This document shows positions 30,416-46,495 of a stretch of 64,000 nt of DNA, one piece after another. Source of the stretch: an uncultured delta proteobacterium (GTDB taxonomy: Bacteria > Desulfobacterota > RBG-13-43-22). Both the position numbers and the translations under genes were made by a program. How positions within the stretch are numbered: the first letter of the stretch is position 1; the number at the start of each line of letters is the position of its first letter. Where the stretch lies: assembly GCA_963790475.1 (NCBI GenBank), contig CAWBOS010000013.1:128001-192000 (forward strand). The letters are read 5' to 3'. The notes below the pieces were generated by a model. That model made no database searches. It saw only the letters and a list, made by a program, of their open reading frames with translations, and was not told where the DNA came from.

Positions 30416-30490
30416 GCCGGCGTAGCTCAGGGGTAGAGCAGCTGATTCGTAATCAGCAGGCCGCGGGTTCAAATCCCATCGCCGGCTCCA
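30416..30490 (+). tRNA. tRNA-Thr(CGT)
   Basis: Cloverleaf: GCCGGCG/CGCCGGC acceptor stem, anticodon arm GCTGA-TTCGTAA-TCAGC, GTTCAAATC T-loop, encoded CCA. Confidence 0.95.
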
Positions 30491-30855
30491 TAAAATTTCA
30501 ATAAGTTACATTGCCATAAATAGTGAGACAAGAATACCGGGTGGAGATGGATGTGAAAAAAAAATTAAAAGGCATTTTGACCTTCAATTAAGGAGGTCCT
30601 CAAACAATAAACGCCCGACACCACCTGGCCGCCAGCCATTCGTACACTTTGGGCTTCCGACGGTAACCGCAAGAGCAAAACATCCAGATCCCTCCGGAAT
30701 CCTTTTCCGGCCTGACCTCCAGTCACAACATTTAAGACTCAACACCTGGGTCTTTTTGTACCCATTTATATTCGGGCACCCCGATTAACAAAAAAGTCTA
30801 TAAATTTATTGACTTCTTGCCGGTTAAGAGGTACGAAATCCAAAGCAAATTAATT

Positions 30856-30947
30856 AAGTTTTCTTTATTGGCAACCTTCTAATAAAGGAGTTCCGATGGC
30901 AGGATGATAAACCCCATTTCTTAGAAGAGAAGTGGGGTTTTTATTTT
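30856..30947 (+). repeat. Conserved ~90-nt leader/terminator element, copy 1
   Basis: AAGGAG, ATG GCA GGA TGA TAA, then stem AAACCCCATTTCT/AGAAGTGGGGTTT plus T tract; TTGACT-17-TACGAA upstream at 30809. Confidence 0.75.
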
Positions 30948-31058
30948 AGATATAGACCCATTCAGATATTTATAGGCACTGGAGATAATTTGTTCTCAAA
31001 TAATGAAAAAGCGCACTACTTTGATGATAATGGTCTGAAAAAACAAAGAGATAGAGAA

Positions 31059-32210
31059 ATGATCTTTATCAGTTATAGTCATGAAGATGAAGAACATTTA
31101 GAAAGATTACGCATCCACATGAAGCCATTAGAAAAAAGGGGATTGGTGGTTATATGGGATGACTCAAAAATAATAACTGGACAAAAATGGCAAGAAAAAA
31201 TTGAAACTGCGTTATCAAAAGCAAATATTGCAATCTTAATAATATCTGCAGACTTTTTTGCATCAGACTTTATTGCTGAAAAGGAGCTTCCCCCTATTCT
31301 AAAGAAGGCTGAATCAGAAGGAACAATGATAGTGCCTATAATTCTCAAACCATGTCGGTTTTTAAGGGAAGAGCACCTTTCAAAATTTCAAGCCCTAAAC
31401 CATCCTGACGAACCATTGCTATCAATGTCTGACATAGAACAAGAGAAAACATGGGATCGATTATCACAGCTCATTGAGACCGAGTTGAGGCGTCCCGACG
31501 AAGAGGCCATTTTAAATTATACAGAGAAGATCGGTACTAATAATAATGATGAATTGTTATACTTTAGGCGTGGCGTCTGTTATAAAAGGTTAGGAAAATT
31601 TCATGAAGCCATTTCTGATTTTTTAAGAGCAAAGGATATTGAACCGAAAGATCGATTCGTTTATTTTGAACTCGGTGACTGTTATAAAAAATTACATAAG
31701 TATTTAGATTCAATAAAAAATTATTTGAAATGTTTGGAATTTGAGCCTGATCCAAAACCTATTTTAAATAAATTAGGTTTAATTTTAAAGGATCTCGGCG
31801 GAGAACATTTTGATTTTTCTGGTTTAACCGCCTTGGATAAAAAATTGAGGTTACGTTGGGTAAGAAACGCTAATTTGTCACCTAAGAGATTAACTTGGGA
31901 TGAAGCTAACCATTTTTTACAAAATTTGAACATAGAAGGTTATGCCGGATACAATGATTGGAGATTACCTGATATAGGTGAGCTTGTGACATTAATTAGT
32001 TTTGTCAAAAATATTGGGTACGAGAAAAAGTTTGGAAGATTATTTAATAAGATGGGATTTAATAATGTCCAATCTACAATTTTTTGGTCAAACGAAGTCG
32101 TTATGAAAAAACCTAATTGGGTTTACGCTATTAACATGAATTATGGAGGGAAAAGTCGACATAAGAAAATAGCCAAACATTGCATTTGGCCTGTGAGATC
32201 TGAATGTTAA
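31059..32210 (+). CDS. TIR_2 - TPR - DUF1566 (Lcl-like) fusion protein
   Basis: IFISYSH.D...W.D..I..G..W...I, SADFFAS.FI..KEL (TIR); YFRRG.CY..LGKF.EA/YFELG TPRs; LTW.EA..F...LN..GYAGYNDWRLP...EL...FWS...WPVR. Confidence 0.8.
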   Translation: MIFISYSHEDEEHLERLRIHMKPLEKRGLVVIWDDSKIITGQKWQEKIETALSKANIAILIISADFFASDFIAEKELPPILKKAESEGTMIVPIILKPCRFLREEHLSKFQALNHPDEPLLSMSDIEQEKTWDRLSQLIETELRRPDEEAILNYTEKIGTNNNDELLYFRRGVCYKRLGKFHEAISDFLRAKDIEPKDRFVYFELGDCYKKLHKYLDSIKNYLKCLEFEPDPKPILNKLGLILKDLGGEHFDFSGLTALDKKLRLRWVRNANLSPKRLTWDEANHFLQNLNIEGYAGYNDWRLPDIGELVTLISFVKNIGYEKKFGRLFNKMGFNNVQSTIFWSNEVVMKKPNWVYAINMNYGGKSRHKKIAKHCIWPVRSEC

Positions 32211-32440
32211 TGATCTTTCAATAGGGCAGAGGTCCATAAAGTGTTGAGAAAGGGCTTTCTCAATCTGAAGGGGACTTCTTCGGCCAAGATTAAGATAAGT
32301 AAGATAGGATGTTGCATTACAGCGAATCTTACTATCTTACTTGCAACCGTGAAGGGCCTTCCATTGGCTCTGCCCTGTAAATAAATTAAGTTTTTGTGAT
32401 ATGAATAGCAATGAATGACCAATTTGTATATAAATTACCC

Positions 32441-32530
32441 AAGTTTTCTTGTTGGCAACCCTCTCATTAAGGAGTTCCAATGGCAGAATGATAACCCCCA
32501 TTCCTCAAAAGAGAAGTGGGGGTTTTTTTT
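32441..32530 (+). repeat. Conserved leader/terminator element, copy 2
   Basis: AAGGAG, ATG GCA GAA TGA TAA, CCCCCATT...AGTGGGGG plus T8; near-identical to 30856-30947. Confidence 0.75.
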
Positions 32531-32574
32531 CGATCTAAGCGATCACGAAATAAATTATGGAATAGAGAGTTATT

Positions 32575-34827
32575 ATGCCTCGATTGACTGAACAGGAACA
32601 ACAAGAGATTATCCGCTATATTGAGGCCGACAAACCCCTGCCGGACAAGTACCGATTCTTATTGTTTGAAGACAAACGCGAAGTGGAGTTGGTCTGGAAT
32701 GGGAAGACTAATGAGGTCTGCAACATCGTGTTGCCGTTTCAGGTGATCGAGCAGGTGGACGAGCCGCGGGCCGAAAAGCCGGCCGATACGGCGCTACAAA
32801 TGGGCCTCTTCGACTCCCGGGGGCGTCAGCTAAAGGGGTGGACAAACAAGCTCATCTGGGGGGACAACAAGCTTATTCTCTCCTCCCTGAAGAACGGCCC
32901 CTTGCGTGAGGAGATTGAGAAACAGGGCGGCATCAAGGTGATGTCTATTGATCCCCCCTTTGACGTAGGTGCGGATTTCTCCATGGATATTGAGATCGGT
33001 GACGACACCTTCACCAAAAAGCCCAACATTCTTGAAGAGATCGCCTACCGTGACACCTGGGGCAAGGGTGTGGATTCCTTCATCGCTATGATTTATGAGC
33101 GGCTAACACTGATGCGAGATCTCCTGGCTGAAGATGGCAGTATTTATGTCCATTGTGATTGGCATATTGGGCACAGTATTAAACTTGTGTTAGATGAGGT
33201 TTTTGGTGCGATTAATTTCAGAAATCATATTTCCTGGAAAAGGAGCACTCCGAGGGGTAATGCGAAAAATAAATATCCTGAATTAACGGATTTCATTCTT
33301 TTTTATTCAAAGTCTGAGGACACCATTTGGAATGACCAGTATACTGATTATAGGCCAGAATACATTGAAAAATACTATTCATATGTTGATGAGAAGACAG
33401 GAAAGAAGTTTCAACCTACAAGTTTGCTTGGGCATTCCGGCGTTAACCCAATTTATGAGTGGCGAGGCATCAAAAGACCTTGGAGATACCCAATAAACCG
33501 GCTCGAAGAGTTAGATATTCAAGGAAAGATTTATTGGCCTGAAGGAGAAGGTATCCCCAGGTTAAAACGTTTTTTTGATGAACAAAAAGGGGTACCAGTT
33601 CAGTCATTATGGGATGATATTCCACCTGTTAATTCTCAAGCGCTCGAAGATACAAAATACGCGACTCAAAAGCCCGAAGCCCTACTCGAACGCATCATTA
33701 AAGGCTCTTCAAATGAAGGCGATCTCGTTGCTGACCCTTTCGGTGGTTCTGGAACCTTGGCAGCGGTGGCGGAGAAATTAGGCCGCAAGTGGATTGTAGC
33801 CGACCTTGGCAAGTTCGCCATCCACACGACGCGCAAGCGGTTGATCGGCGTCCAGCGGCAACTGAAAGCCGAGGGTAAAGACTACCGCGCTTTTGAAATC
33901 CTAAACCTGGGCAAGTACGAGCGCCAACATTACATCGGTATCAATCCGAACCTACGTCAGGCAGAACAACAAAAACAACTGGAAGAAAAGGAAGCCGCGT
34001 TTCTCGACCTGATTCTACGTGCCTACCGGGCCGAGAAGACCGAGGGTTTTGCCGCGTTCCACGGCAAAAAAGCTGGACGGTTGGTGGCGGTGGGACCGGT
34101 CAATCTGCCGGTAACACGCCTGTTCGTTGAAGAAATCATTTTGGAATGCCGCAAAAAACATATTACAAAAGTGGACCTTCTCGGTTTTGAGTTTGAAATG
34201 GGGCTGTTCCCCAATGTATTGGATGAAGCCAGGGCCAAGGGCATCGACATTTCGCCTAAGTATATCCCCGCTGATGTCTTCGACAAACGGGCTGTGGAAA
34301 AGAATCAGGTGGTCTTCCATGACGTGGCCGCCATTGAAGTCAAGCCGCATGTCAAAAAAAATAATGTGGCGGTGGAGCTGACAGACTTTTCGGTTTTTTA
34401 TTCCCAGGATTCCATCGCCGGCGCCGAGGCCACGCTTAAGGACAAGGCCAGCAAGATCGTGGTGGAGAAGGGCCAGATCATTAAATTGATTAAGGACGCG
34501 AAGGGCCTCGTGAAACGGGAGTATTTGACTAAGAAGTGGACTGATTGGATTGATTACTGGGCGGTGGATTTCAACTTCGAAAACAAGCGAGAGATTATCC
34601 GCGTACAGAACGAGGAAAACGGTGAGTGGGAGGAGCGTTGGACTGGAGACTACATCTTTGAAAACGAGTGGCAGTCCTTCCGTACCAAGAAAGACCGCTC
34701 GCTGGAAATGACCAGCGTCTTTCACGAATGCCCGCCCGGACGGCGCAAGCTGGCGGTGAAGGTGGTGGATATTTTCGGCAACGACACCATGACCATTGTC
34801 GAAATCTCTGTGGGAGGGAAGAAATAA
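32575..34827 (+). CDS. mod: Type III restriction-modification methyltransferase
   Basis: NKLIWGDN, IDPPF, YATQKPE.LLERII, DPFGGSGT (beta-class N6/N4 MTase); TAATG coupling to res. Confidence 0.88.
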   Translation: MPRLTEQEQQEIIRYIEADKPLPDKYRFLLFEDKREVELVWNGKTNEVCNIVLPFQVIEQVDEPRAEKPADTALQMGLFDSRGRQLKGWTNKLIWGDNKLILSSLKNGPLREEIEKQGGIKVMSIDPPFDVGADFSMDIEIGDDTFTKKPNILEEIAYRDTWGKGVDSFIAMIYERLTLMRDLLAEDGSIYVHCDWHIGHSIKLVLDEVFGAINFRNHISWKRSTPRGNAKNKYPELTDFILFYSKSEDTIWNDQYTDYRPEYIEKYYSYVDEKTGKKFQPTSLLGHSGVNPIYEWRGIKRPWRYPINRLEELDIQGKIYWPEGEGIPRLKRFFDEQKGVPVQSLWDDIPPVNSQALEDTKYATQKPEALLERIIKGSSNEGDLVADPFGGSGTLAAVAEKLGRKWIVADLGKFAIHTTRKRLIGVQRQLKAEGKDYRAFEILNLGKYERQHYIGINPNLRQAEQQKQLEEKEAAFLDLILRAYRAEKTEGFAAFHGKKAGRLVAVGPVNLPVTRLFVEEIILECRKKHITKVDLLGFEFEMGLFPNVLDEARAKGIDISPKYIPADVFDKRAVEKNQVVFHDVAAIEVKPHVKKNNVAVELTDFSVFYSQDSIAGAEATLKDKASKIVVEKGQIIKLIKDAKGLVKREYLTKKWTDWIDYWAVDFNFENKREIIRVQNEENGEWEERWTGDYIFENEWQSFRTKKDRSLEMTSVFHECPPGRRKLAVKVVDIFGNDTMTIVEISVGGKK

Positions 34828-37508
34828 TGGCCTTGCATAAAGACTTTCCTGAATCCCCCTACGATATTCTTGACCCGGTCTTGCGTTGGTTTCCGGCCGA
34901 CGAATCGTTGCGCGAGACCACGATGGAAAAACTGATACCCCCGTTGGTGTCGCAACTACGCAATAAGGTGAAGGAATGGCGGGACAGCAGTTATGCCGGG
35001 GCCACGGATACCAGCAAGAGTTTGCTTAAATGGTGGTTTATTACCCCACACCTGCTGCCCAAGGCTGACGGCACCATGACCGAGTTTCAGTATTACTTTG
35101 CCCAGCGCGAGGCGCTGGAGACGATTATCTATCTTTATGATGTGGTTGGCGTCCAAGACAAGTTTGATCTCATGCGCTTTGACAGTTCCGGCGCGGTTTC
35201 GGCCGGAATGTTCGATGAAACCTGGCGACGTTTTGTGGTAAAAATGGCGACCGGCTCCGGCAAGACCAAGGTGTTGAGTCTTGTTCTGGCTTGGAGTTTC
35301 TATCATAAGCTTTATGAACCGGGGTCGGAGTTGGCTCGGAATTTTCTGGTAATCACTCCTAATATTATCGTCCTGGATCGCATCTATAAGGATTTTAAGG
35401 GCCTTGATATCTTTTTTAAAGACCCGGTTATTCCCGACAATGGCGTGGGCGGACGGAACTGGCGCGATGATTTTCAACTGACCCTGCACGTGCAGGACGA
35501 GGTGCGGATTACCCGTCCCACCGGTAATATCTTTTTAACCAACATTCACCGTGTTTATGCCGGGAATGATATTCCCCCTTCTCCTGATGACGAAGACCTC
35601 CGGGATTATTTCCTGGGGAAGCGTCCCAGCGGCGCAACTACCGATTCCAAAGTTGACTTGGGAATGATCGTGCGCGACGTTGATGAGCTGGTGGTCTTGA
35701 ACGACGAGGCCCATCACATCCATGACCCTCGCATGGCTTGGTTCAAATCCATCGAGGACATCCATAATCGATTGAAACAAAAAGGCGCGGCTCTCTCCCT
35801 GCAAGTGGACACTACCGCCACCCCAAAACACAATAACGGGGCAATCTTCGTCCAGACGGTGGCCGATTATCCATTGGTTGAAGCAATCTCGCAAAACGTG
35901 GTTAAACACCCGGTCCTGCCCGATGCCCCCAGCCGTGCCAAATTAGTGGAACGTCAGAGCGCCAAATTCACCGAGAAATACACAGATTACATCCACCTCG
36001 GGGTGATCGAGTGGCGCAAGACGTATACCGAGCATGAAAAACTGGGCAAGAAGGCCATCCTGTTCGTTATGACGGACGATACCCGCAATTGCGACGACGT
36101 GGCTGAATACCTTGAAAATAATTATCCCGATCTGAAAAACGCAGTCTTGGTCATTCATACTAAGACCAATGGTGAGATTTCCGAATCAACCTCGGGCAAG
36201 AGCAAGGAAGAGTTGGACAAACTTCGTGAGCAGGCGAACATTATTGATGAACTGGACAGTCCTTACAAGGCTATCATATCCGTGATGGTGCTCAAAGAGG
36301 GTTGGGACGTGCGCAACGTTACCACCATTGTGGGTTTGCGGGCCTATTCCGCCCAAAGCAATATTTTGCCCGAACAAACCCTTGGTCGCGGATTAAGAAA
36401 AATGTACCCCGGCAGCGTGGAAGAATACGTCAGCGTAGTCGGAACCAATGCCTTTATGGAATTTGTTGAATCGATCCAGGCCGAAGGGGTGGTCCTGGAC
36501 CACAAGCCTATGGGCGAGGGGACAGGCCCCAAAACCCCCCTGGTTGTGGAGGTTGATAGAGACAATATCAAAAAGGACATCGAGGCGCTGGATATCGAAA
36601 TTCCGGTGCTGTCCCCGCGGATCTATCGGGAATATAAGAACCTTAGCAGCCTGGACGTAAGCGCGATTGGGCACCAACGTGTCTTATACCTTCAATTCAG
36701 CGAAGAGGAGCAACGGGAGATCGTCTTTAAGGACATCACCACCGGGGAGGTATCCCACACAACAATTTTGGATACAGGAGGTGTTGCCGATTACCGCAGC
36801 GTTATCGGCTTCTTCGCCCAATCCATTATGAAAGAATTGCGGCTGGTAGGCGGTTATGACGTTCTATATGGAAAGGTCAAGGCGTTTATCCGGGATGATC
36901 TGTTCGACAGGGAAGTGGACCTCGAAAGCCCAAACACCTTGCGAAACCTGTCAGAGCCGGCAGCAACGATGACTCTGATTGGGACCTTTAAAAAAGCGAT
37001 CAATGCTCTCACAGTCCAAGACAAAGGGGACGCTGAAATCCGCGATACTATCAAACTAAGGCAGACGAGGCCCTTTGTGGCGAAGGAGCAAAGCTACCTT
37101 ATCCCGAAAAAAAGCGTTTTTAATCGTATTATCGGCGATAGCCATTTTGAATTGCTATTCGCCCGGTTCTTGGAAGACTGCGAAGATGTGATTTCCTACG
37201 CCAAGAATTATTTGGCTGTTCATTTCAAGCTGGACTACGTTAATGCGGCCGGTGATATTTCCACCTACTATCCGGATTTTTTAGTAAAGCTATCCGATAA
37301 TCGCATGGTCATTGTTGAAACCAAGGGGCAGGAAGAATTAGACGTACCCCAAAAAATGGACCGTTTGCGGCAATGGTGTGAGGATATCAACCGCGTCCAG
37401 TCCGATGTAAGATATGGCTTTGTTTATGTGGACCAGGAAAGCTTTGAGAGATTCAAGCCGGTCTCATTCAGGCAATTGGTTGAAGGCTTCAGGGAATACA
37501 AAAAATAA
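34827..37508 (+). CDS. res: Type III restriction endonuclease/helicase
   Basis: KMATGSGKT, NDEAHH, TATP, LKEGWDV, EQTLGRGLR, C-terminal YYPDF...VETKG nuclease. Confidence 0.88.
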   Translation: MALHKDFPESPYDILDPVLRWFPADESLRETTMEKLIPPLVSQLRNKVKEWRDSSYAGATDTSKSLLKWWFITPHLLPKADGTMTEFQYYFAQREALETIIYLYDVVGVQDKFDLMRFDSSGAVSAGMFDETWRRFVVKMATGSGKTKVLSLVLAWSFYHKLYEPGSELARNFLVITPNIIVLDRIYKDFKGLDIFFKDPVIPDNGVGGRNWRDDFQLTLHVQDEVRITRPTGNIFLTNIHRVYAGNDIPPSPDDEDLRDYFLGKRPSGATTDSKVDLGMIVRDVDELVVLNDEAHHIHDPRMAWFKSIEDIHNRLKQKGAALSLQVDTTATPKHNNGAIFVQTVADYPLVEAISQNVVKHPVLPDAPSRAKLVERQSAKFTEKYTDYIHLGVIEWRKTYTEHEKLGKKAILFVMTDDTRNCDDVAEYLENNYPDLKNAVLVIHTKTNGEISESTSGKSKEELDKLREQANIIDELDSPYKAIISVMVLKEGWDVRNVTTIVGLRAYSAQSNILPEQTLGRGLRKMYPGSVEEYVSVVGTNAFMEFVESIQAEGVVLDHKPMGEGTGPKTPLVVEVDRDNIKKDIEALDIEIPVLSPRIYREYKNLSSLDVSAIGHQRVLYLQFSEEEQREIVFKDITTGEVSHTTILDTGGVADYRSVIGFFAQSIMKELRLVGGYDVLYGKVKAFIRDDLFDREVDLESPNTLRNLSEPAATMTLIGTFKKAINALTVQDKGDAEIRDTIKLRQTRPFVAKEQSYLIPKKSVFNRIIGDSHFELLFARFLEDCEDVISYAKNYLAVHFKLDYVNAAGDISTYYPDFLVKLSDNRMVIVETKGQEELDVPQKMDRLRQWCEDINRVQSDVRYGFVYVDQESFERFKPVSFRQLVEGFREYKK

Positions 37509-37580
37509 ATATAACACGGCGCTTCCCCGGACGACTATTCCGCTGCCGCTCCATAGCAATGGTTTGATGAAGGGGGGAAC

Positions 37581-37850
37581 TTGAAAAGCAAAATCACTGA
37601 GATTCCGATTTCATACCTTACCCGCTCAAAAAACAGACTGGGTAAAGGGGCCGTCCCCTGCGTGGCTACCGGTCGTTGGTTGGAATTCCCACCTGTATCC
37701 TCTGGCCACTTCAAGGAGGGCGAGTTTATCTTATTGAAAGTAATGACAAAAGATAAAAACAATAGAGACAAAATAATTTGTAAACTTGTTATCACCAGGG
37801 AAAACCTGCTGGACGCAATAAATTTTACAGGAAGTCCCTTAAAATATTGA
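37581..37850 (+). CDS. Small hypothetical protein
   Basis: 89-aa ORF, TTG start after a G-rich RBS. Confidence 0.4.
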   Translation: MKSKITEIPISYLTRSKNRLGKGAVPCVATGRWLEFPPVSSGHFKEGEFILLKVMTKDKNNRDKIICKLVITRENLLDAINFTGSPLKY

Positions 37851-37998
37851 TAACTATATCAGGGGGATATGGGATAGCACCAAATGGAGGTTTGAGAACT
37901 TCTTCCTGCTATACGTACCAAAGTGATGATTGACAGATAAGGAGATTTTGATCATCATCTGTCTGATTTTCTTATTGATTTAAGAAAAGGAGACAGAG

Positions 37999-39138
37999 AT
38001 GACGAGCCTATATAGTGATATACAGAAGGCAGATATAACTTCAGATCATTTTAAGAGTCCCACCCCAACCCCACCCCGTTACTATCAGACGCGGTTACGA
38101 TTCACCTCCCATCTTGAAGGAAGTTTAGAAGCGCTCGGAAAGATTTTGAAACGGTTGGCCGGAATGGACCTCCCGGGGAGAGATCAGGTAGCCGCCTATC
38201 TTCGCCACTTAACTCACGGCAATCGCCGACCGAGAACCCTGTACAGTCGGTTTGGCACCCTCGTTCTTTTTCTGGGACTGATACGGGACACCGGCAAAGG
38301 CTTTGAAGCCATTACCCGAAGTGATGTAGAGGCCTTTATCGAGCGAGAGCAGGACCGGGGGATTAAGATAACGACGATCAGGACCAGGCTGGTGAGTGTG
38401 CAGGCCTTTCTCCGCTATCTGGTGGAGGAAGGGATCGTTTCTGGGGATATATTCCGCAGTCGGAGGATACGGTTGCAGTTACCGGAGCGGCTGCCGCGGG
38501 CCATGGATCCTGACGATCTGCAGAAGCTGCTTTCCGTTATTCATGATATCCGTGACCGAGCTTTGATCCTGGTCTTGTTGCGGACTGGCCTGCGGATCGG
38601 CGAGTTGCTTCAGACCAAGATGACCGACGTCCATCTCCAGGAGCGGAAGATAGAGATTTACGAAGGGGAGAAGAACCGCCTGGGGAGGGTGGTCTATCTC
38701 AGCGACGATGCAGTTATAGCCCTGCGGAAGTGGTTGAAGAAGAGGAATCCCGGAGAGGAGTACCTGTTCTATGGGAAGAACGTCGAGACTTTGTGTTACA
38801 GCACCGCCCGGATCATCTTTCTGCGATATATATCCAAAGCGGGATTAGAGGGCAAGGGATATTCCCTGCATACCCTGCGTCACACCTTTGCCACGGAGTT
38901 GCTCAACGCCGGCATGCGTCTGGAGTGCCTCCAGGTATTGCTGGGACACCGGAGCATCGAGGAGACGCGACGTTATGCCCGGTTGACCGATAAGACCCGG
39001 GAGGAGGAGTATTTTAAGGCCATGTCGAAGATCGAGAGGAGGAAGAGTCATGATCGATGCGATCCTGAACTGGCGGCGATTTTTGAAGCGAAGGAACTGT
39101 TCGCCCCATTGCCTGAAGAACTATCTGAACCTCATTAA
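37999..39138 (+). CDS. Tyrosine recombinase A
   Basis: TGLRIGE, GEK, HTLRH, LLGH, TRRY: full catalytic set. Confidence 0.92.
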   Translation: MTSLYSDIQKADITSDHFKSPTPTPPRYYQTRLRFTSHLEGSLEALGKILKRLAGMDLPGRDQVAAYLRHLTHGNRRPRTLYSRFGTLVLFLGLIRDTGKGFEAITRSDVEAFIEREQDRGIKITTIRTRLVSVQAFLRYLVEEGIVSGDIFRSRRIRLQLPERLPRAMDPDDLQKLLSVIHDIRDRALILVLLRTGLRIGELLQTKMTDVHLQERKIEIYEGEKNRLGRVVYLSDDAVIALRKWLKKRNPGEEYLFYGKNVETLCYSTARIIFLRYISKAGLEGKGYSLHTLRHTFATELLNAGMRLECLQVLLGHRSIEETRRYARLTDKTREEEYFKAMSKIERRKSHDRCDPELAAIFEAKELFAPLPEELSEPH

Positions 39139-39937
39139 ACACTTTGTCATCTGGTTGGATGTGCCGGTGGAGGAGGTTACCTCTGCGGTCGTCTCCCGCT
39201 ACATTGAGCATCTGATGAGGAAGAGACTGGCGCCCAAGACAGTCAACTGTCACTTAAACGGCATCCGCCAGTTCTACCATTATCTGCGGGAGGAAGAAGG
39301 TCTGACCATCACCAATCCCATCAGGAAGCATCACTTCCAGAAGATGTCCAGGCCCCTTCCCCGGCACCTGAGAGATGAACAGGTGGAGACCTTCTTCCAG
39401 GCCATCAAGGGGGCCCGCGACCGGGCCATGTTCATGCTTATGCTTAGATGCGGGTTACGGGTGGAAGAAGTCGCCCATCTCACCATAGGCGTCATCGACG
39501 TCAAGCGCAGGACCATCCTGGTGGAAGACGGCAAGGGTGGAAAAGACCGGGTCGTCTATATGAGTCATGATGCCCTTCAGGCCCTGACCGCCTATCTGAG
39601 GGTGAGGCCTCTATCCAGAGCCAGTAGGATCTTTCTGGCGGAAAAGGCTCCCTGTAAGGGACAGCCCATTTCCATTCGTGGCATTCAGAGGCGCATGGAA
39701 TATTATGGCCGCCAAGCGAAGCTCAAGGTGTCCTGTCATCATCTTCGACACACCATGGCCACCCAGCTGCTCAACGCTGATGCCGATCTCTGCACCATCC
39801 AGGATCTCTTGGGTCATAGCAATGTGAAAACCACGCAACGGTACTGCCGGATATCAAACCTGAAAGTGCAGAGAGACTACTTCAAGGCCATGGAGGTGAT
39901 CAGGCTACAAACGGCTGGCAACCCAAATAATCCTTGA
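39050..39937 (+). CDS. Tyrosine recombinase B (XerC/D-like)
   Basis: CGLRVEE, GKGGKDR, HHLRH, LLGH, TQRY; overlaps recombinase A by 89 nt. Confidence 0.92.
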   Translation: MIDAILNWRRFLKRRNCSPHCLKNYLNLIKHFVIWLDVPVEEVTSAVVSRYIEHLMRKRLAPKTVNCHLNGIRQFYHYLREEEGLTITNPIRKHHFQKMSRPLPRHLRDEQVETFFQAIKGARDRAMFMLMLRCGLRVEEVAHLTIGVIDVKRRTILVEDGKGGKDRVVYMSHDALQALTAYLRVRPLSRASRIFLAEKAPCKGQPISIRGIQRRMEYYGRQAKLKVSCHHLRHTMATQLLNADADLCTIQDLLGHSNVKTTQRYCRISNLKVQRDYFKAMEVIRLQTAGNPNNP

Positions 39938-40183
39938 CAAAAGAACTAAACTATGAAATTTTAAACAGTACCTAACCCATTAACTTCAATAAGAAAATCA
40001 GACTTTAGTACGTATAGCTTCCTGTAGTCCGCAGATCTCTATTTTTGAAAAACCGCAAGAGTACGAACGGAAATCGTTAATAAAAATACCTTGTTATTTC
40101 AGGAAATTCAACAGATAATAAAGTATTCCCAACAAGTTTACCTATTTTTTGCTTTCAATCCCTCTCGATAGAATTGGAGAATA

Positions 40184-41605
40184 ATGAGCATACGGGATAC
40201 CATGAAGAAGCTATTGGGTGGTAAGCCCGTTGATATCGGTGAGCTTAATAGGCGAACAACACGGGAATCTTTGCAGAAGGTTCCTATCCCCGTACCCAAA
40301 AACCCTCTTGAAGGGATTCACATCACTGATGAATTTAGAACAGTCGAGTCTTTGCTTGATGCTGGCTACCCAGTAGTCTTCGTCTCTGGCAATGCTGGCA
40401 CGGGAAAGTCAACATTGATCCATTATCTACGAACTGTCCTAAAGAAGAAGTTGGTAGTTGTAGCCCCAACTGGTGTGGCTGCCCTGAACGTCGGCGGCGT
40501 TACAATTCATTCATTTTTCCATCTCCCCCCGAAGATCCACGAAGACGAAGATATCAAACTCGTATATGACAGGAGGCTTTACCAGAAACTAGACTTGCTT
40601 ATTATCGATGAAGTCTCAATGGTCCGATGTGATCTCATGGACAGCATTGACAATTTCCTCAAAAAGAATAGGGCGAACAATGACCCCTTCGGTGGCGTTC
40701 AATTGCTACTGATTGGCGACCTCTTTCAATTGCCGCCTGTCGTTCCTAGGCAGGAAATGGTTATATTAAAAGAGAAGGGATACTTCAGCCCTTACTTCTT
40801 TAGTTCGTTTAGCCTGCAGAAAAGTTCCCTGGTTCCCATTGAGCTTACATTTGTCTATAGACAAGAGGACTCCTTTTTCGTATCTCTGCTGAATAGTTTG
40901 CGGATAGGGGAGAACGTAGATTTAGCAACTGCCGAGGTCAATTCCCGGTGTTATTGGAACGGAGATGTATCTACAGACATCACTCTGACTTGCACGAACA
41001 TAAGGGCTGACCAAATCAACATGGATGAATTGCACCAGATACTTGAAAGAGAGTATGCCTTCAAAGGCGAAATCAAAGGACGGTTCTCTCTTGAAGAAGA
41101 CAAACTGCCTTCCCCGCTTGACCTAAGGTTGAAAGTCGGTGCACGAGTTATGTTCACCAAGAACGACGATCACCGAAGGTGGGTCAATGGAACTCTCGGT
41201 ATCATACGACATATAGACCAAAAATCAATCGGCGTTGAACTTGTTACTGATCAGAAAGGGTCAAACTTTGATGTTCAAAGGGTTACATGGGAGACATACA
41301 AGTATGCCTACAGCCCCGAGAAGGACCAGATACTTGCGAAAAAAGTAGGCGAGTACACACAGTATCCCTTAATGCTGGCATGGGCCGTCACTATACACAA
41401 GAGTCAAGGCAAGACCCTGAAAAACGTCCTGGTTGATCTGGGCAATGGTGCATTTACTTCTGGCCAGGTCTACGTGGCGCTTAGTCGTTGTCGATCTATA
41501 AAAGACATCCGTCTCGCACGTCCACTTCGGAATACAGACGTGAAATGTGATCCTTTGATTAAAAGATTCTACCTAACTTTGGATGAAATGAAAAAGAGAA
41601 TGTGA
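40184..41605 (+). CDS. Pif1-family (SF1B) DNA helicase
   Basis: GNAGTGKS, APTGVAA, TIHSFF, IDEVSM, GDLFQLPPV, YRQ, LKVGARVM, YPLMLAWAVTIHKSQG, GQVYVALSR. Confidence 0.9.
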   Translation: MSIRDTMKKLLGGKPVDIGELNRRTTRESLQKVPIPVPKNPLEGIHITDEFRTVESLLDAGYPVVFVSGNAGTGKSTLIHYLRTVLKKKLVVVAPTGVAALNVGGVTIHSFFHLPPKIHEDEDIKLVYDRRLYQKLDLLIIDEVSMVRCDLMDSIDNFLKKNRANNDPFGGVQLLLIGDLFQLPPVVPRQEMVILKEKGYFSPYFFSSFSLQKSSLVPIELTFVYRQEDSFFVSLLNSLRIGENVDLATAEVNSRCYWNGDVSTDITLTCTNIRADQINMDELHQILEREYAFKGEIKGRFSLEEDKLPSPLDLRLKVGARVMFTKNDDHRRWVNGTLGIIRHIDQKSIGVELVTDQKGSNFDVQRVTWETYKYAYSPEKDQILAKKVGEYTQYPLMLAWAVTIHKSQGKTLKNVLVDLGNGAFTSGQVYVALSRCRSIKDIRLARPLRNTDVKCDPLIKRFYLTLDEMKKRM

Positions 41606-41609
41606 TTTA

Positions 41610-42390
41610 ATGGAAAATTATTCAGACCACCTAATGCCCGAAGAGAAAGAACTTTTTGAAAAAAAGAAGGAATTAACAGTTCTTGAAGAAGAGTTGTTCC
41701 AGCAGGAGTTGGATTTGGCAACGACAAAGGCCGATCTTCTGGTATATGAAGGGAAGTATATTCGTATTGTTGGTAGCCTTTATGCAGAACTTGATGAGAT
41801 AGAGGCCCAAATATCTGAAGCAGAAGCAAACCTTGACCTTAATAACAAAGAGACTTTATTTAAAGCCAAAGAGGCCCGTCGAAAGGCACAAGAATCCCAC
41901 GAGGCTACCACATCTGCCATAATAGAAAAGGCACAAAAAAAATTCCGGCCATCAGATGAAATTAAAAAACTTTATCGTCAGGCGGCTAAAGCTATGCATC
42001 CGGATTTGTCAACAGACGAAAAGTCACACACTATACGAAAACAAATGATGGCTGAAGTAAACCTCGCTTACGAAGAAGGAAGCGAAGAAAAGCTGTGTGA
42101 AATTTTAAGACGGTGGGAAACTAGTCCGGATTCTGTTGAGGGGGAAGGGGTTGGAGCGGAGCTAATTAGAATAATCAGAAAAATTACTCAAATAAAGGAT
42201 CGATTAAAGGCTATTAAAGTTGAAATTTCGGATTTAGAGAAATCAGAATCTTTGGAAGTTAAAGGAAGAAATCAAAAAAGCAGAAAAAGAGGGAAGAGAT
42301 CTTCTTAAGGAAATGGCCGATAGACTATATGATCAAATACTGTCGGCAAGAGCCAGATTAAAAAATGTGAATATAAAAACCAGTGGTTAA
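41610..42390 (+). CDS. Coiled-coil protein with J-domain-like HPD motif (probable frameshift ~42250)
   Basis: KKLYRQAAKAMHPDL...MAEVNLAY; the shifted frame continues LWKLKEEIKKAEKEGRDLLKEMA... to TAA at 42388-42390, overlapping the next ATG. Confidence 0.75.
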
Positions 42391-44045
42391 TGGTTAATGG
42401 AATGACTGATAATACTGAAAAGCAAACAAGTTTAATCTCCTTAAGCAAGTTAGAAATAGCAAAATATTCTCAAGGCTTAATTAAAAGGGGGATAGAGTTA
42501 ACTAAGGAGATAAATTTACAAGTCATAAAGAGCGCAAATGACTATTTTGACGTAGGGATAGGATGCTATGAAAAGAAAGATTTTGAGGGGGCTATTGCAA
42601 ATTTTACGAAATCGATTGCAATAGATGTTGATTTTTCTCAAGCCTACCTATATCGGGGGAAAGCTTTTTGTTATAGAACAAATAAAGAATGGAAAGCTGA
42701 ATACACAAATTTAATAGTCAAAGGAAGTTATGTTAAAGACGACAATGACCCTTTTGTTTTTAGTTCACGGCTAACTCACTTGGATACTTTCAATAATGTC
42801 TGTTTTTATTTACTCCAAGGGATTTGTTTTATGCAAGATATTTCCGGGGATGATAATGCACCTAATCGGCCTAATGGAGAAAAATTTGAAATATCCTCTG
42901 ATGATTTATTTTCTTATTTTGCAAAGCCAATAGTTCCTATGCGTGTTAAATCTGTCAATATTTTTTTGGCTTCTCCTGCAAAGATTGAAGGGAATTCTTT
43001 TGGTGAGATAAAAACGCCTGATACTCTTATCAAAATCAGATTGGGGCAGATAGATCGAAGACCATTCCGGTCTAAATATAGTTATAAGCCAAAAATGAAG
43101 GGATTATTTTGTTGTAGGATATTTGGGCCTATTAAGGACTATGAGTGTATTTGTGGCAAATACAATCTGATGAAGCACCGCGGAGTTGTCTGCGAAAAGT
43201 GTAGGGTTGAGGTCATTCAGTCCAAGGCCAGGCGACAGCGCATGGGACATATTAAGCTGACAATTCCAGTGGTCCACACTTGGTTTCTTAAATATCTCCC
43301 TTATCAAATTGACATACTTTTGGATATGCCAAGAGAGGAATTAGAAAAAATAATCTATTATAACTCATGGATTGTTCTTGACCCTCGTCAAACATCACTT
43401 AAGAGAAGAGAAGTGCTGGATAAAGAGGGATATAAACAGGTTATAAAGAATTATGGTTTTAATTCATGTGAAATGAGTTCGGGGGCTGAGGCAGTTAAAA
43501 GATTACTTGAAGAGTTAGATCTTAAAAAAACAACCGACCAAATACTATCAGACATTAATAAAACAAATTCAGAAATAAAAAAGACTTTTCTAAAGACAAG
43601 ATTGGAGACTATTAATTATTTCATTAGAACAGGAGTTAAACCGGAATGGATAATTCTTAACGTTTTGCCTATAATACCACCAGGTTATAGGCCGCTCTTC
43701 CCAGATAGTTTTGAAATAAGTCTCAATCATCATTACAAAGTTGTCATTAACCAGAATAATTATTTGAAGCGATTACTTGATCAAAATCTCCCTGAGGCAA
43801 TTATTACGATGGCGAAAAAAACCCTTCAGAGGTCTGTCGATGCTCTTTTTGAGAACGAGCAATTTGGAAAAGATCCAAGGGATTATGAACAAGCTATTTC
43901 TGATTTTGATACTTTTATGAGATTAGAACCCAACAGAGAAGAGCCGTATTTTTATCGAGGAGTATTTTTTTTAGAAAGAGGGAGGATTGATGAGGCGTTT
44001 AAAGATTTAAATCATATATCATCTTTTAGAAAGAAAGAAGATTGA
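42390..44045 (+). CDS. TPR protein with an inserted RNA polymerase beta-prime (RpoC) N-terminal clamp domain
   Basis: TPRs at both ends (YFDVG..CYEKKDFEGAIANFTKSI..D..F..AYLYRG; DYEQAISDF..F.RLEP....YFYRG); aa ~184-489 follow RpoC: LASP, GEIKTPDT, GLFC.RIFGPIKDYECICGKY, GVVCEKC.VEV...RR.RMGHI.L..PV.H.WF, GAEAVK.LL, PEW.IL..LP.IPP..RP, VIN.NN.LKRLL, LQ..VDALF.N. Confidence 0.9.
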   Translation: MVNGMTDNTEKQTSLISLSKLEIAKYSQGLIKRGIELTKEINLQVIKSANDYFDVGIGCYEKKDFEGAIANFTKSIAIDVDFSQAYLYRGKAFCYRTNKEWKAEYTNLIVKGSYVKDDNDPFVFSSRLTHLDTFNNVCFYLLQGICFMQDISGDDNAPNRPNGEKFEISSDDLFSYFAKPIVPMRVKSVNIFLASPAKIEGNSFGEIKTPDTLIKIRLGQIDRRPFRSKYSYKPKMKGLFCCRIFGPIKDYECICGKYNLMKHRGVVCEKCRVEVIQSKARRQRMGHIKLTIPVVHTWFLKYLPYQIDILLDMPREELEKIIYYNSWIVLDPRQTSLKRREVLDKEGYKQVIKNYGFNSCEMSSGAEAVKRLLEELDLKKTTDQILSDINKTNSEIKKTFLKTRLETINYFIRTGVKPEWIILNVLPIIPPGYRPLFPDSFEISLNHHYKVVINQNNYLKRLLDQNLPEAIITMAKKTLQRSVDALFENEQFGKDPRDYEQAISDFDTFMRLEPNREEPYFYRGVFFLERGRIDEAFKDLNHISSFRKKED

Positions 44046-44204
44046 TGAAGCGTTTGCGGATTTAAACATTTAACATCGCTAAAATAGAATTGGTTCAACA
44101 AGAAAAGTTTGGATTTGTTCAAAAAGTAAGCGACTATTTATTAAGTTTTTGGAAAAGAAACGGATTCAGTCAAGATATTGACCCGAGATTAAAAGGCAAG
44201 CAAA

Positions 44205-45053
44205 ATGGAGTTTGTAGATTGTCGTAAATGCGGGTTTAAAAATCCTCTTCCTATCTATGAGATGATATGCGGTAATTGCGGATATCGTCTTTACCTTGGT
44301 CGAAATGCTCAATATGTAGAAAGGGAACTTACGCAAGGTACGCCCACGTGGCATGATTGGCGAAGAGAAGGAATAGGTGCGTCGGAAGCGCCTACTGCTA
44401 TGGGCGTGTCTAAGTTTATGTCTATTGAGAAGTTGGTAAAGATTAAGACCGGAAAGACGCCCGAACCGCCTTCAAATAAATATATGAGTCGAGGGAAAGA
44501 ACTGGAGAAACCTGCAAGGGAATTGTATATCAAAAAGACAGGCATAACCGTTCATCCGTCATGTCTTGAATCGCTTGACCGGGGATGGATGAGAGCAAGC
44601 CTGGACGGATGGTCAAAAGAAAACCATCTCGTAGTCGAAATCAAGTGTCCGCAGGGAGAGAAAGACCACTCGCAAGCACTTAGGGGAAAAGTTCCAGAGC
44701 ATTACTATCCACAACTTCAACACATTCTTGCGGTAACTGGCTTTTCAGAGATTGACTATTGGAGCTTTCGGAAAGGTAAGGGAGTCCTCCTGAAAGTTAA
44801 GAGGGATGAGAATTATATCCAAAAACTTATTTCGACTGAAGTGAAGATATGGCATAGAATTACATCGGATAAAAATTTTAATAGTGGCAGCAAAGTTGTT
44901 TTAACCTGCCCAAATCCAAGTTGTTCAAAAGGGCTGAAGGTCTCAACTGGTGGAGATTTACCAAGGAGGGTATTTGTCTGTATGCACTGCGGGATTGAAT
45001 TTGAATTATATGAGAGTCCTTGGGGTATCAAGCCTCGTATCAAATCTAATTAG
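44205..45053 (+). CDS. YqaJ/lambda-exonuclease-family nuclease with N- and C-terminal zinc ribbons
   Basis: QGT..W..WRR.GIGASE, RG.ELE..AR, ASLDG, EIKCP, YYPQLQH; CRKC/CGNC and CPNPSC/CMHC. Confidence 0.85.
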   Translation: MEFVDCRKCGFKNPLPIYEMICGNCGYRLYLGRNAQYVERELTQGTPTWHDWRREGIGASEAPTAMGVSKFMSIEKLVKIKTGKTPEPPSNKYMSRGKELEKPARELYIKKTGITVHPSCLESLDRGWMRASLDGWSKENHLVVEIKCPQGEKDHSQALRGKVPEHYYPQLQHILAVTGFSEIDYWSFRKGKGVLLKVKRDENYIQKLISTEVKIWHRITSDKNFNSGSKVVLTCPNPSCSKGLKVSTGGDLPRRVFVCMHCGIEFELYESPWGIKPRIKSN

Positions 45054-45115
45054 TGTCCATCCGGAAGTGGACTTTCCCATATCATATAGATAGGGTTGGG
45101 GTATTGAGCGTGGAT

Positions 45116-45895
45116 ATGAAAATCCTGGATAATCTGAGCTACGTTCCGATTGGTAGATGCATATACTGCGGAGATACTGAAGACCTGCAGAAAGAACATA
45201 TCCTCCCATTCGGTTTAGGGGGCACTACCGTTTTGCCAGATTCAACATGTAGAGAGTGCGCGAAAATTACAGGGCAGGTGGAGCAGAAGGTCCTCCGCGG
45301 TCCAATGTGGGGTCTACGGATTTACCGAGGACTAAAGTCCAGAACAAAACATGAAGAGGCTCCTAAATGTTACCCCCTTAAAATCATAAAGAACGGAGCG
45401 GAACAGTTAGTTGAACTGTCTATCAATGAATTCCCCATAATGTTGCATTTTCCGATTTTTGAACCGCCTGCATATCTGAATCCAAATGCCTATAAAAAAG
45501 GCATCTTGGTGAGCGGTGTTGTTACCGTTTCTTTCGGGCCACGCCCCGAAGAAGTTGCTCGGACATTAGGTGCCAAATCTATCTCTATTAGCCAAGACCA
45601 GGAACCAGTTGCATTTGCCCGCATGATAGCCAAAATAGCGTATTCTTGGGCGGCAGCAGAGGGCAAACTTGATCTTTTGCGAGGCGCTTCTCCAGTTGTC
45701 TCAGCTATTTTGGGCAAGACAGACGATATCGGTCGCTGGGTTGGTACGGTTACTGATCACATACAGAAGCATAACGGTTTGCTGCACCGTATACTGATTC
45801 ATGAAGATGACGACAGGCACCTTCTAATCGGGGAGGTCCACCTGTTCAGTGACTCTGAAACGCCCAAATATGGAGTAATCCTTGGTGAAATCTAA
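45116..45895 (+). CDS. HNH-endonuclease-like protein
   Basis: CIYCG...EHILPFGLGG...CRECA; start at 45116 or 45053. Confidence 0.7.
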   Translation: MKILDNLSYVPIGRCIYCGDTEDLQKEHILPFGLGGTTVLPDSTCRECAKITGQVEQKVLRGPMWGLRIYRGLKSRTKHEEAPKCYPLKIIKNGAEQLVELSINEFPIMLHFPIFEPPAYLNPNAYKKGILVSGVVTVSFGPRPEEVARTLGAKSISISQDQEPVAFARMIAKIAYSWAAAEGKLDLLRGASPVVSAILGKTDDIGRWVGTVTDHIQKHNGLLHRILIHEDDDRHLLIGEVHLFSDSETPKYGVILGEI

Positions 45896-46048
45896 GCCTA
45901 CCTACTTATCGCTTAAAGAGACAGTGCACTGGATCGCCGACAAATCCAGCTCTCGGTGACCTCAGCGTTATTTACTAACTTTCATATCGTAAGTGTTGCC
46001 CTTTTTGCTTCGCAAAAGTAACCATTTGTAGGTGAACTTAGCATTTGA

Positions 46049-46405
46049 TTATTGGCAATGAGGCCGGTCCGGGTTCTTCCACCGGCCTCCCCAAACTCCT
46101 CCAACCGATTCCCAAAGGTGGCCCGCCTCATCATAATCAGGCCCGGCGCTCTGATTGGTATCGACCTTGATATCCCAAACGGGCTTTCCGTCCCAGGTGA
46201 TCGCAAAATCAAAGACCCGGGCTTTGTCGTTATCCGGATCATGGGCTCGATGTCAACGATATGCAACGACTTCAAGGTCCAGGTGATTATCCTGTTTTTG
46301 GGATCGTGGATGGGGGTTAGCCCAACCAGCCAGCGATAGGAACAGGCCACCCTGGTCGGACAATACCGTAATCTCTTCCCCCCCGGTTACTATTTTAGAT
46401 CTCAT
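46049..46405 (-). pseudogene. Relic of a phage-type M15 peptidase (endolysin)
   Basis: Fragments IITWTLKSLH and ARVFDFAITWDGKPVWD...YDEAGHLWESVGGVWGGRWKNPDRPHCQ* in different frames. Confidence 0.65.
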
Positions 46406-46418
46406 TCCTTTGTCTCAT

Positions 46419-46495
46419 AAAACAAAACCCCCACCTCTCTTTGAGAAATGGGGGTTATCATTCTTCCATGGATGCTCACATTCTGAAGGCTGCCG
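46419..46495 (-). repeat. Conserved leader/terminator element, copy 3 (diverged)
   Basis: GGCAGCCTTC...ATG GAA GAA TGA TAA CCCCCATTTCTCAAAGAGAGGTGGGGG TTTTGTTTT. Confidence 0.7.

Follow-up and report, generated by a model that had tools for sequence, protein, structure and literature searches.

A minimal two-recombinase element at fixed 7-bp cores of accessory-gene module arrays in uncultured deltaproteobacteria

A compact unit that encodes only two tyrosine recombinases raises the question of how such a small element moves and what decides where it is inserted. The window, the whole stretch of 64,000 nucleotides that was analysed, carries this element at positions 37909-40017 (2109 bp; Table 1). 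The element sits within a tRNA-adjacent island, where a tRNA gene is followed by a TIR-TPR-Lcl gene and a Type III restriction-modification pair (30416-37508). Its G+C content is 52%, compared with 41-42% in the flanks. The terminal arms, CTATACGTACCAAAGT and the reverse complement CTATACGTACTAAAGT, match at 15 of 16 positions. An earlier note on this DNA had described the same unit at the same coordinates, with 16-bp terminal inverted repeats differing at one position, CTTCCTG just outside both ends and a perfect 18-bp inner inverted repeat. All of this was borne out, except that the inner repeat, which had been said to abut the right terminal repeat, overlaps the right arm by 2 bases. The element is not a chance pattern, because the same ends are seen again in two other genome copies and in 35 complete family members.

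Table 1. Features of the element and of the adjoining module, in positions of the window
Feature	Position	Strand	Remark
Left flank unit X, ends at core	37568..37901	+	89-aa ORF without Pfam match; element-free in relatives
Left crossover core CTTCCTG	37902..37908	+	Putative attL
Left terminal arm, 16 bp	37909..37924	+	Probable core-binding site for recombinase; conserved across the family
Predicted promoter TTGACA, 17 bp, CATCAT	37930..37958	+	Read from sequence; similar in relatives
Inner 18-bp repeat, left copy	37961..37978	+	Between predicted promoter and ribosome-binding site
Tyrosine recombinase A, 379 aa	37999..39138	+	Phage_int_SAM and Phage_integrase domains
Tyrosine recombinase B, 295 aa	39050..39937	+	Phage_int_SAM and Phage_integrase domains; predicted Xer-like two-domain fold
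Inner 18-bp repeat, right copy	39986..40003	-	Perfect match to left copy
Right terminal arm, 16 bp	40002..40017	-	Sequence comparison of ends
Right core CTTCCTG	40018..40024	+	Second flanking copy
Core and target site L1: arm WAVTC, A/T tract, distal box TTCAAAC-GRTAATC-GTT	40018..40082	+	Left end of cargo module
Cargo module, core 1 to core 2	40018..46034	+	PIF1-like helicase, DnaJ-like, TPR/RpoC-like, YqaJ and HNH genes
Site R2, core GTAGGTG at 46028-46034	45975..46034	-	Right end of module; weak HMM score, E 0.02

Regarding the coding capacity, the ORFs of A and B overlap by 89 nt, and both proteins combine a core-binding domain with a catalytic domain carrying the R-H-R-H-Y residues of the tyrosine recombinase superfamily (R199-H291-R294-H317-Y326 in A; R137-H230-R233-H256-Y265 in B). 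The element thus encodes two overlapping, catalytically intact recombinases and nothing else, as had been read from the sequence before. The catalytic motifs are present in 39 of 39 A proteins and 38 of 39 B proteins of the family set. A and B are 27% identical to each other, and the termini of A vary among relatives (the first ~45 and the last ~35 residues). In a comparison with the L017 copy, third codon positions hold 94 of the 175 differences in A and 62 of the 104 in B. A structure search with the predicted fold gave generic recombinase matches alone (TM about 0.4).

The two further copies in the genome (C10:824299-826407 and C13:39577-41686) support the proposal that the element was recently active, the copies being 98.9-99.5% identical over the BLAST alignment. 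The C10 copy shows zero internal differences from the element of the window; the C13 copy shows ten, one of which, the insertion of one base towards the end of gene A, may have arisen in assembly. CTTCCTG lies on either side of all three copies, whose flanks are unrelated. As the same word is shared despite unrelated flanks, the 7-mer is to be regarded as a fixed crossover core and not as a target duplication, an option that the earlier note had raised. In established tyrosine-recombinase chemistry, strand exchange takes place across a short overlap, and inverted arms around an asymmetric 7-bp overlap make up a core site. It is very probable that the 7-mer is such an overlap between inverted arms, and that integration needs the same 7-mer and reproduces it on both sides. 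A classical target-site duplication by staggered cuts would likewise place a direct repeat just outside inverted ends; this explanation is barely credible, given that one word is found at all insertions of a lineage and that the element has no DDE transposase, its enzymes belonging to the class that exchanges strands across a short overlap.

Relatives at 82-86% identity occur in five of 20 same-family genomes and carry the same 7-mer where both ends are available. An empty site with a single CTTCCTG had been predicted, and half of it was found: unit X, 79-86% identical in L015, L092, L093 and L095, ends there at a single core, but beyond this core each of the four runs into different DNA, and the exact empty allele of the window locus was not found among the relatives compared. 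Neither the circle junction nor an empty form was seen in the contigs of runs X1-X4 (four of the 20 listed runs), where contigs drop rare forms and X3 and X4 contain small shares only. One X1 contig passes at 40024 from the element into flanking DNA of a fourth kind, which has no exact match in the assembly.

The element belongs to a family. A search of the species collection with protein A yielded 48 loci in hosts labelled Syntrophales, Smithella, Desulfobacterales and other deltaproteobacteria; numerous relatives of protein B were met in metagenomes, and the contigs that carry them are often about 2 kb long. Pooling these loci with those of the same-family genomes gave 35 distinct complete elements with both ends in view, after L039 (false right end) and L002-L005 (duplicates of L017, L016, L043 and L044) had been omitted. 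They are 2041-2448 bp long, possess a common terminal arm and have A/B gene overlaps of 10-170 nt, which agrees with the earlier designation as an IS-like two-recombinase element. In one copy of the element, L098 (G020:C13), gene B is split by a stretch of about 3.6 kb, in which an rve transposase gene and an AAA ATPase gene lie. The flanking 7-mers are identical in 32 of the 35 elements (CTTCCTG in 20, CAAATAC in five, CACCTAC in three, GTAGGTG in two, CTAACTG and CTGCTAT in one each), and according to a quick tree of protein A these six kinds are lineage-specific. The 7-mers of the other three, L026, L042 and L057, are unequal, and this counts against an integration that reproduces the core on both sides. 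The unequal 7-mers would suit a strand-biased copy-out mechanism as in SE and Tn554, in which the 7-mer is carried as a footprint; such a mechanism would fit two catalytically intact recombinases with target specificity, and copy number that increases without a known conjugation system. Copy-out is nevertheless unlikely, since in the accessible part of PMC10214605 such a footprint gives unequal flanks as a rule, and 2.0-2.45 kb is too small to hold a Tfp, Srap or TnpC gene.

In a quick tree and in profile searches, A and B form two clades apart from RitA, RitB and RitC of pHG1, from host XerC/D-like proteins and from IS91-linked recombinases; the tree with B covers a 12-element subset, has poorly supported deep branches and does not include Tn554, SE or GInt proteins, and the RIT reference consists of six pHG1 proteins labelled by gene order and size. 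The best other match of either profile is the partner protein. Overlapping recombinase genes between inverted repeats could be left by a decayed RIT trio that has lost one gene. This origin is highly improbable: RITs are about 3500 bp long and the 35 complete elements 2041-2448 bp, and A and B stand in their own clades. A deletion derivative, named in the earlier note as an outcome that would overturn its reading, was discarded on these two grounds. No RIT was found in the 140-190 kb region of pHG1. Plasmid and phage collections gave no close relative but Xer-level matches (best identity about 34%); two plasmid matches that were inspected proved to be IS91-linked recombinases of a clade separate from A and B. 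Two copies of a recombinase grouping with the IS91-linked recombinases are located at G000 C10:1651520 and C11:98233.

As to where the element is inserted, the right flank of each genome copy belongs to a dispersed site of ~62 bp, designated L1, which consists of the core, the arm WAVTC, an A/T tract and, 37-39 bp from the core, a dyad box; this distal box may be IHF-like. The target, which the earlier note had missed, is a long, one-sided dispersed site of a two-core module array. An L1 profile matched 41 genome sites at E <= 0.01, with none in a reversed-genome control. The sites lie among mixed accessory genes, and 45 of the 46 listed are clear of long ORFs. Among 50 genome sites with core and arm, the box stands at an offset of 40-49 in 14 and elsewhere in one. 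Targets rebuilt for elements of distant hosts retain the core, arm and box, while the middle is not kept. Folding of six sites did not support attC-like hairpins at any of them (z -1.9 to +0.5). Remnants of the right arm (8-16 bp) stand directly before element-free cores at G000 C15:131825, C6:359107 and C15:13688 and at L103:3056.

L1 is one of two kinds of site that bound the modules. The second, R2, has the core GTAGGTG and 31 genome copies (none in the control); modules open at L1 and close at R2. The CACCTAC and GTAGGTG lineages of the element insert at R2; the two words are one core read in opposite orientations, and the flank on which the distal box stands changes with the orientation. 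An R2 site facing L1 was found within 15 kb of 20 of 48 L1 sites. Neighbouring sites share polarity in 41 of 42 pairs in this genome and in 35 of 37 pairs in relatives, the latter from 20 regions chosen for holding L1 sites. Module breakpoints coincide with the cores. Alignments between site neighbourhoods are confined to one side of the core in 244 of 252 cases, in which the pairs are not independent, and three of the eight that span the core represent one locus counted twice. One duplication runs exactly from CTTCCTG to GTAGGTG and comprises a module of 2.76 kb, of which one copy lies next to the C10 copy of the element and the other has no element beside it. A core-2-to-core-2 unit of 1048 bp is duplicated at 99.3%, and further duplicates also end at cores. 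Homologues of the outer right flank of the window module start at GTAGGTG in G002 and G003. In G003, the outer flanks of the window module enclose 8.9 kb of other DNA with different cargo and no element; this can be taken as a hint only, as the flanks in common are short (104 and 139 bp) and repeated in G003.

Several further features accompany the modules. Units of 96-98 bp at G000 C6:632959-633054 and C10:2008718-2008815, with core 1, a degenerate core 2 and one common box, resemble modules free of cargo. Within the window module, 42390-44045 encodes a 551-aa protein with TPR repeats and a match to RNA polymerase Rpb1/RpoC domain 1 (E 9e-41). A leader consisting of a ribosome-binding site, ATG-GAA-GAA-stop, a G+C stem and a T run is found at 46401-46490 (- strand) and at many genome sites; it gave 73 profile matches, some being both strands of one hairpin, and several lie 110-195 bp from L1 or R2. 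An Rfam search of the window and six loci returned tRNA only, and the leader repeat had no match.

Considering these results, we regard it as likely that the two-gene element is excised as a circle and integrates through matching 7-bp cores at module junctions, and that its enzymes probably also reshuffle the modules. In the proposed mechanism, the two ends of the element would recombine to yield a circle with the junction arm-CTTCCTG-arm. The circle would integrate at the same 7-mer where short inverted arms (approximately ABTW / WAVT) enclose it and the distal box stands 32-39 bp away, and core orientation would decide insertion orientation. A and B would share the work, one binding the element arms and the other the target arms, because the element arms (CTATACG) differ from the target arms (WAVTC). 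Finally, two copies recombining at their outer ends, or two target sites recombining with each other, would move the intervening DNA, by which modules would be copied and reordered at core 1 and, through sister lineages, likewise at core 2. The arguments for and against this division of labour and the shuffling of modules by A and B are roughly in balance. More tentatively, the whole may constitute a natural two-address cassette exchange, in which each element lineage recognises a 7-bp core of its own and the lineages act on the two polarised kinds of module-bounding site. Excision, duplication or exchange of modules would then be possible at core 1, at core 2 or at both of them, and the elements would increase the number of sites that they target. 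With one paralogue reading the element ends and the other the target, the 7-bp core would serve as an exchangeable address.

It is also possible, though less likely, that a different host or mobile recombinase runs the module arrays and that the two-gene elements are parasites homing into its sites. L1 occurs in all 20 same-family genomes (1-103 matches among up to 128 candidates scored per genome), while B was found in five of 15; L1 matches in other genomes are weak and limited to two of 20. The genomes richest in L1 (G005, 103; G008, 72; G004, 53; up to 128 candidates scored in each) yielded no B gene at E 1e-30 in incomplete assemblies, and this absence fits another module-shuffling enzyme equally well. 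L1 and R2 also contain extra conserved sequence, and according to the accessible text of PMC10132070, IS1202-family elements provide a precedent by homing to pdif sites. On the other hand, both module cores are exactly the cores of two element lineages, the same box recurs in element targets of distant hosts, right-arm remnants precede several element-free cores, and L1 and R2 are unlike the single dif-like site of the host. Moreover, no other recombinase gene was consistent among 122 proteins sampled near the sites (nearest ORFs only).

We know of no smaller setting than this family for asking why mobile elements need more than one tyrosine recombinase; since its ends, its core and its target have each been defined, two genes and two short sites suffice for a test. 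For RITs, PMC3414803 treats this as a still-open question in its accessible part. The table of five groups of recombinase-encoding transposons in PMC10214605, as far as that source was accessible, includes no two-gene group, and the present family lies outside these groups. Neither the family nor the module arrays were described in the literature searched, mostly main texts of open-access papers, whose supplementary subgroup lists could include these proteins; this is a real, recently mobile family of minimal recombinase elements that is apparently new to the literature. If A and B also move modules, they would account for a large part of the turnover of accessory genes in a family of uncultured deltaproteobacteria and would form an integron analogue built from an IS-like element. 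The naturally varying cores could be useful for recombinase tools.

In integrons, as here, accessory genes stand in arrays of one polarity with recombination sites between them. In contrast to integrons, the present sites show no attC hairpin, and IntI profiles score far below the cut-off. The dif modules of Acinetobacter, as portrayed in the accessible parts of PMC13141974 and PMC10132070, are similar in that gene modules between recombination sites are reshuffled where spacers match, and the IS1202 family (PMC10132070) is similar as a small element homing to module sites. However, the sites described here lie in the chromosome, consist of a 7-bp core with short arms and a distal box, and do not resemble dif; a search with a XerC/XerD-type pattern gave one dif-like genome site, unlike L1 and R2. 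In contrast to IS1202-family elements, the present element brings the genes for its own recombinases, and its insertion point is the crossover itself. The left arm of the dif-like site (G000 C10:970214) shares GTCTGAT with the inner repeat of the element, possibly by chance. RITs, in the accessible text of Van Houdt 2012 (PMC3414803) and Smyshlyaev 2021 (PMC8138268), are likewise multi-copy elements that carry only tyrosine recombinase genes, overlapping and between terminal inverted repeats, but they possess three adjacent genes in about 3.5 kb instead of two in 2.0-2.45 kb, gene overlaps of 4-8 bp instead of 10-170 nt and terminal repeats of 28-34 bp instead of 16 bp; the present element further differs in having a fixed 7-bp core at its flanks and a target that is defined. 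SE, GInt and Tn554, in the portion of Idola 2023 (PMC10214605) that was available, share two catalytically intact tyrosine recombinases and target specificity; they rely on one large recombinase with helpers (Tfp/Srap, GinC/D, TnpC), whereas A and B have 379 and 295 aa with no room for a third gene, and SE and Tn554 leave unequal 6-bp flanks, compared with equal 7-mers in 32 of 35 members here. TnPZ of Helicobacter with XerT, according to the accessible text of PMC2731543, combines an Xer-like enzyme, short terminal inverted repeats and a fixed 7-bp word on both sides at many sites; it differs in its size of about 39-55 kb, its single recombinase and its type IV secretion genes, and that text describes neither an extended target nor module arrays for it. 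On the features tested, the element is set apart from RIT, Tn554, SE, GInt, TnPZ, dif modules and integrons; it behaves like a site-specific integrative element whose 7-bp overlap is fixed, and in its logic TnPZ comes nearest to it.
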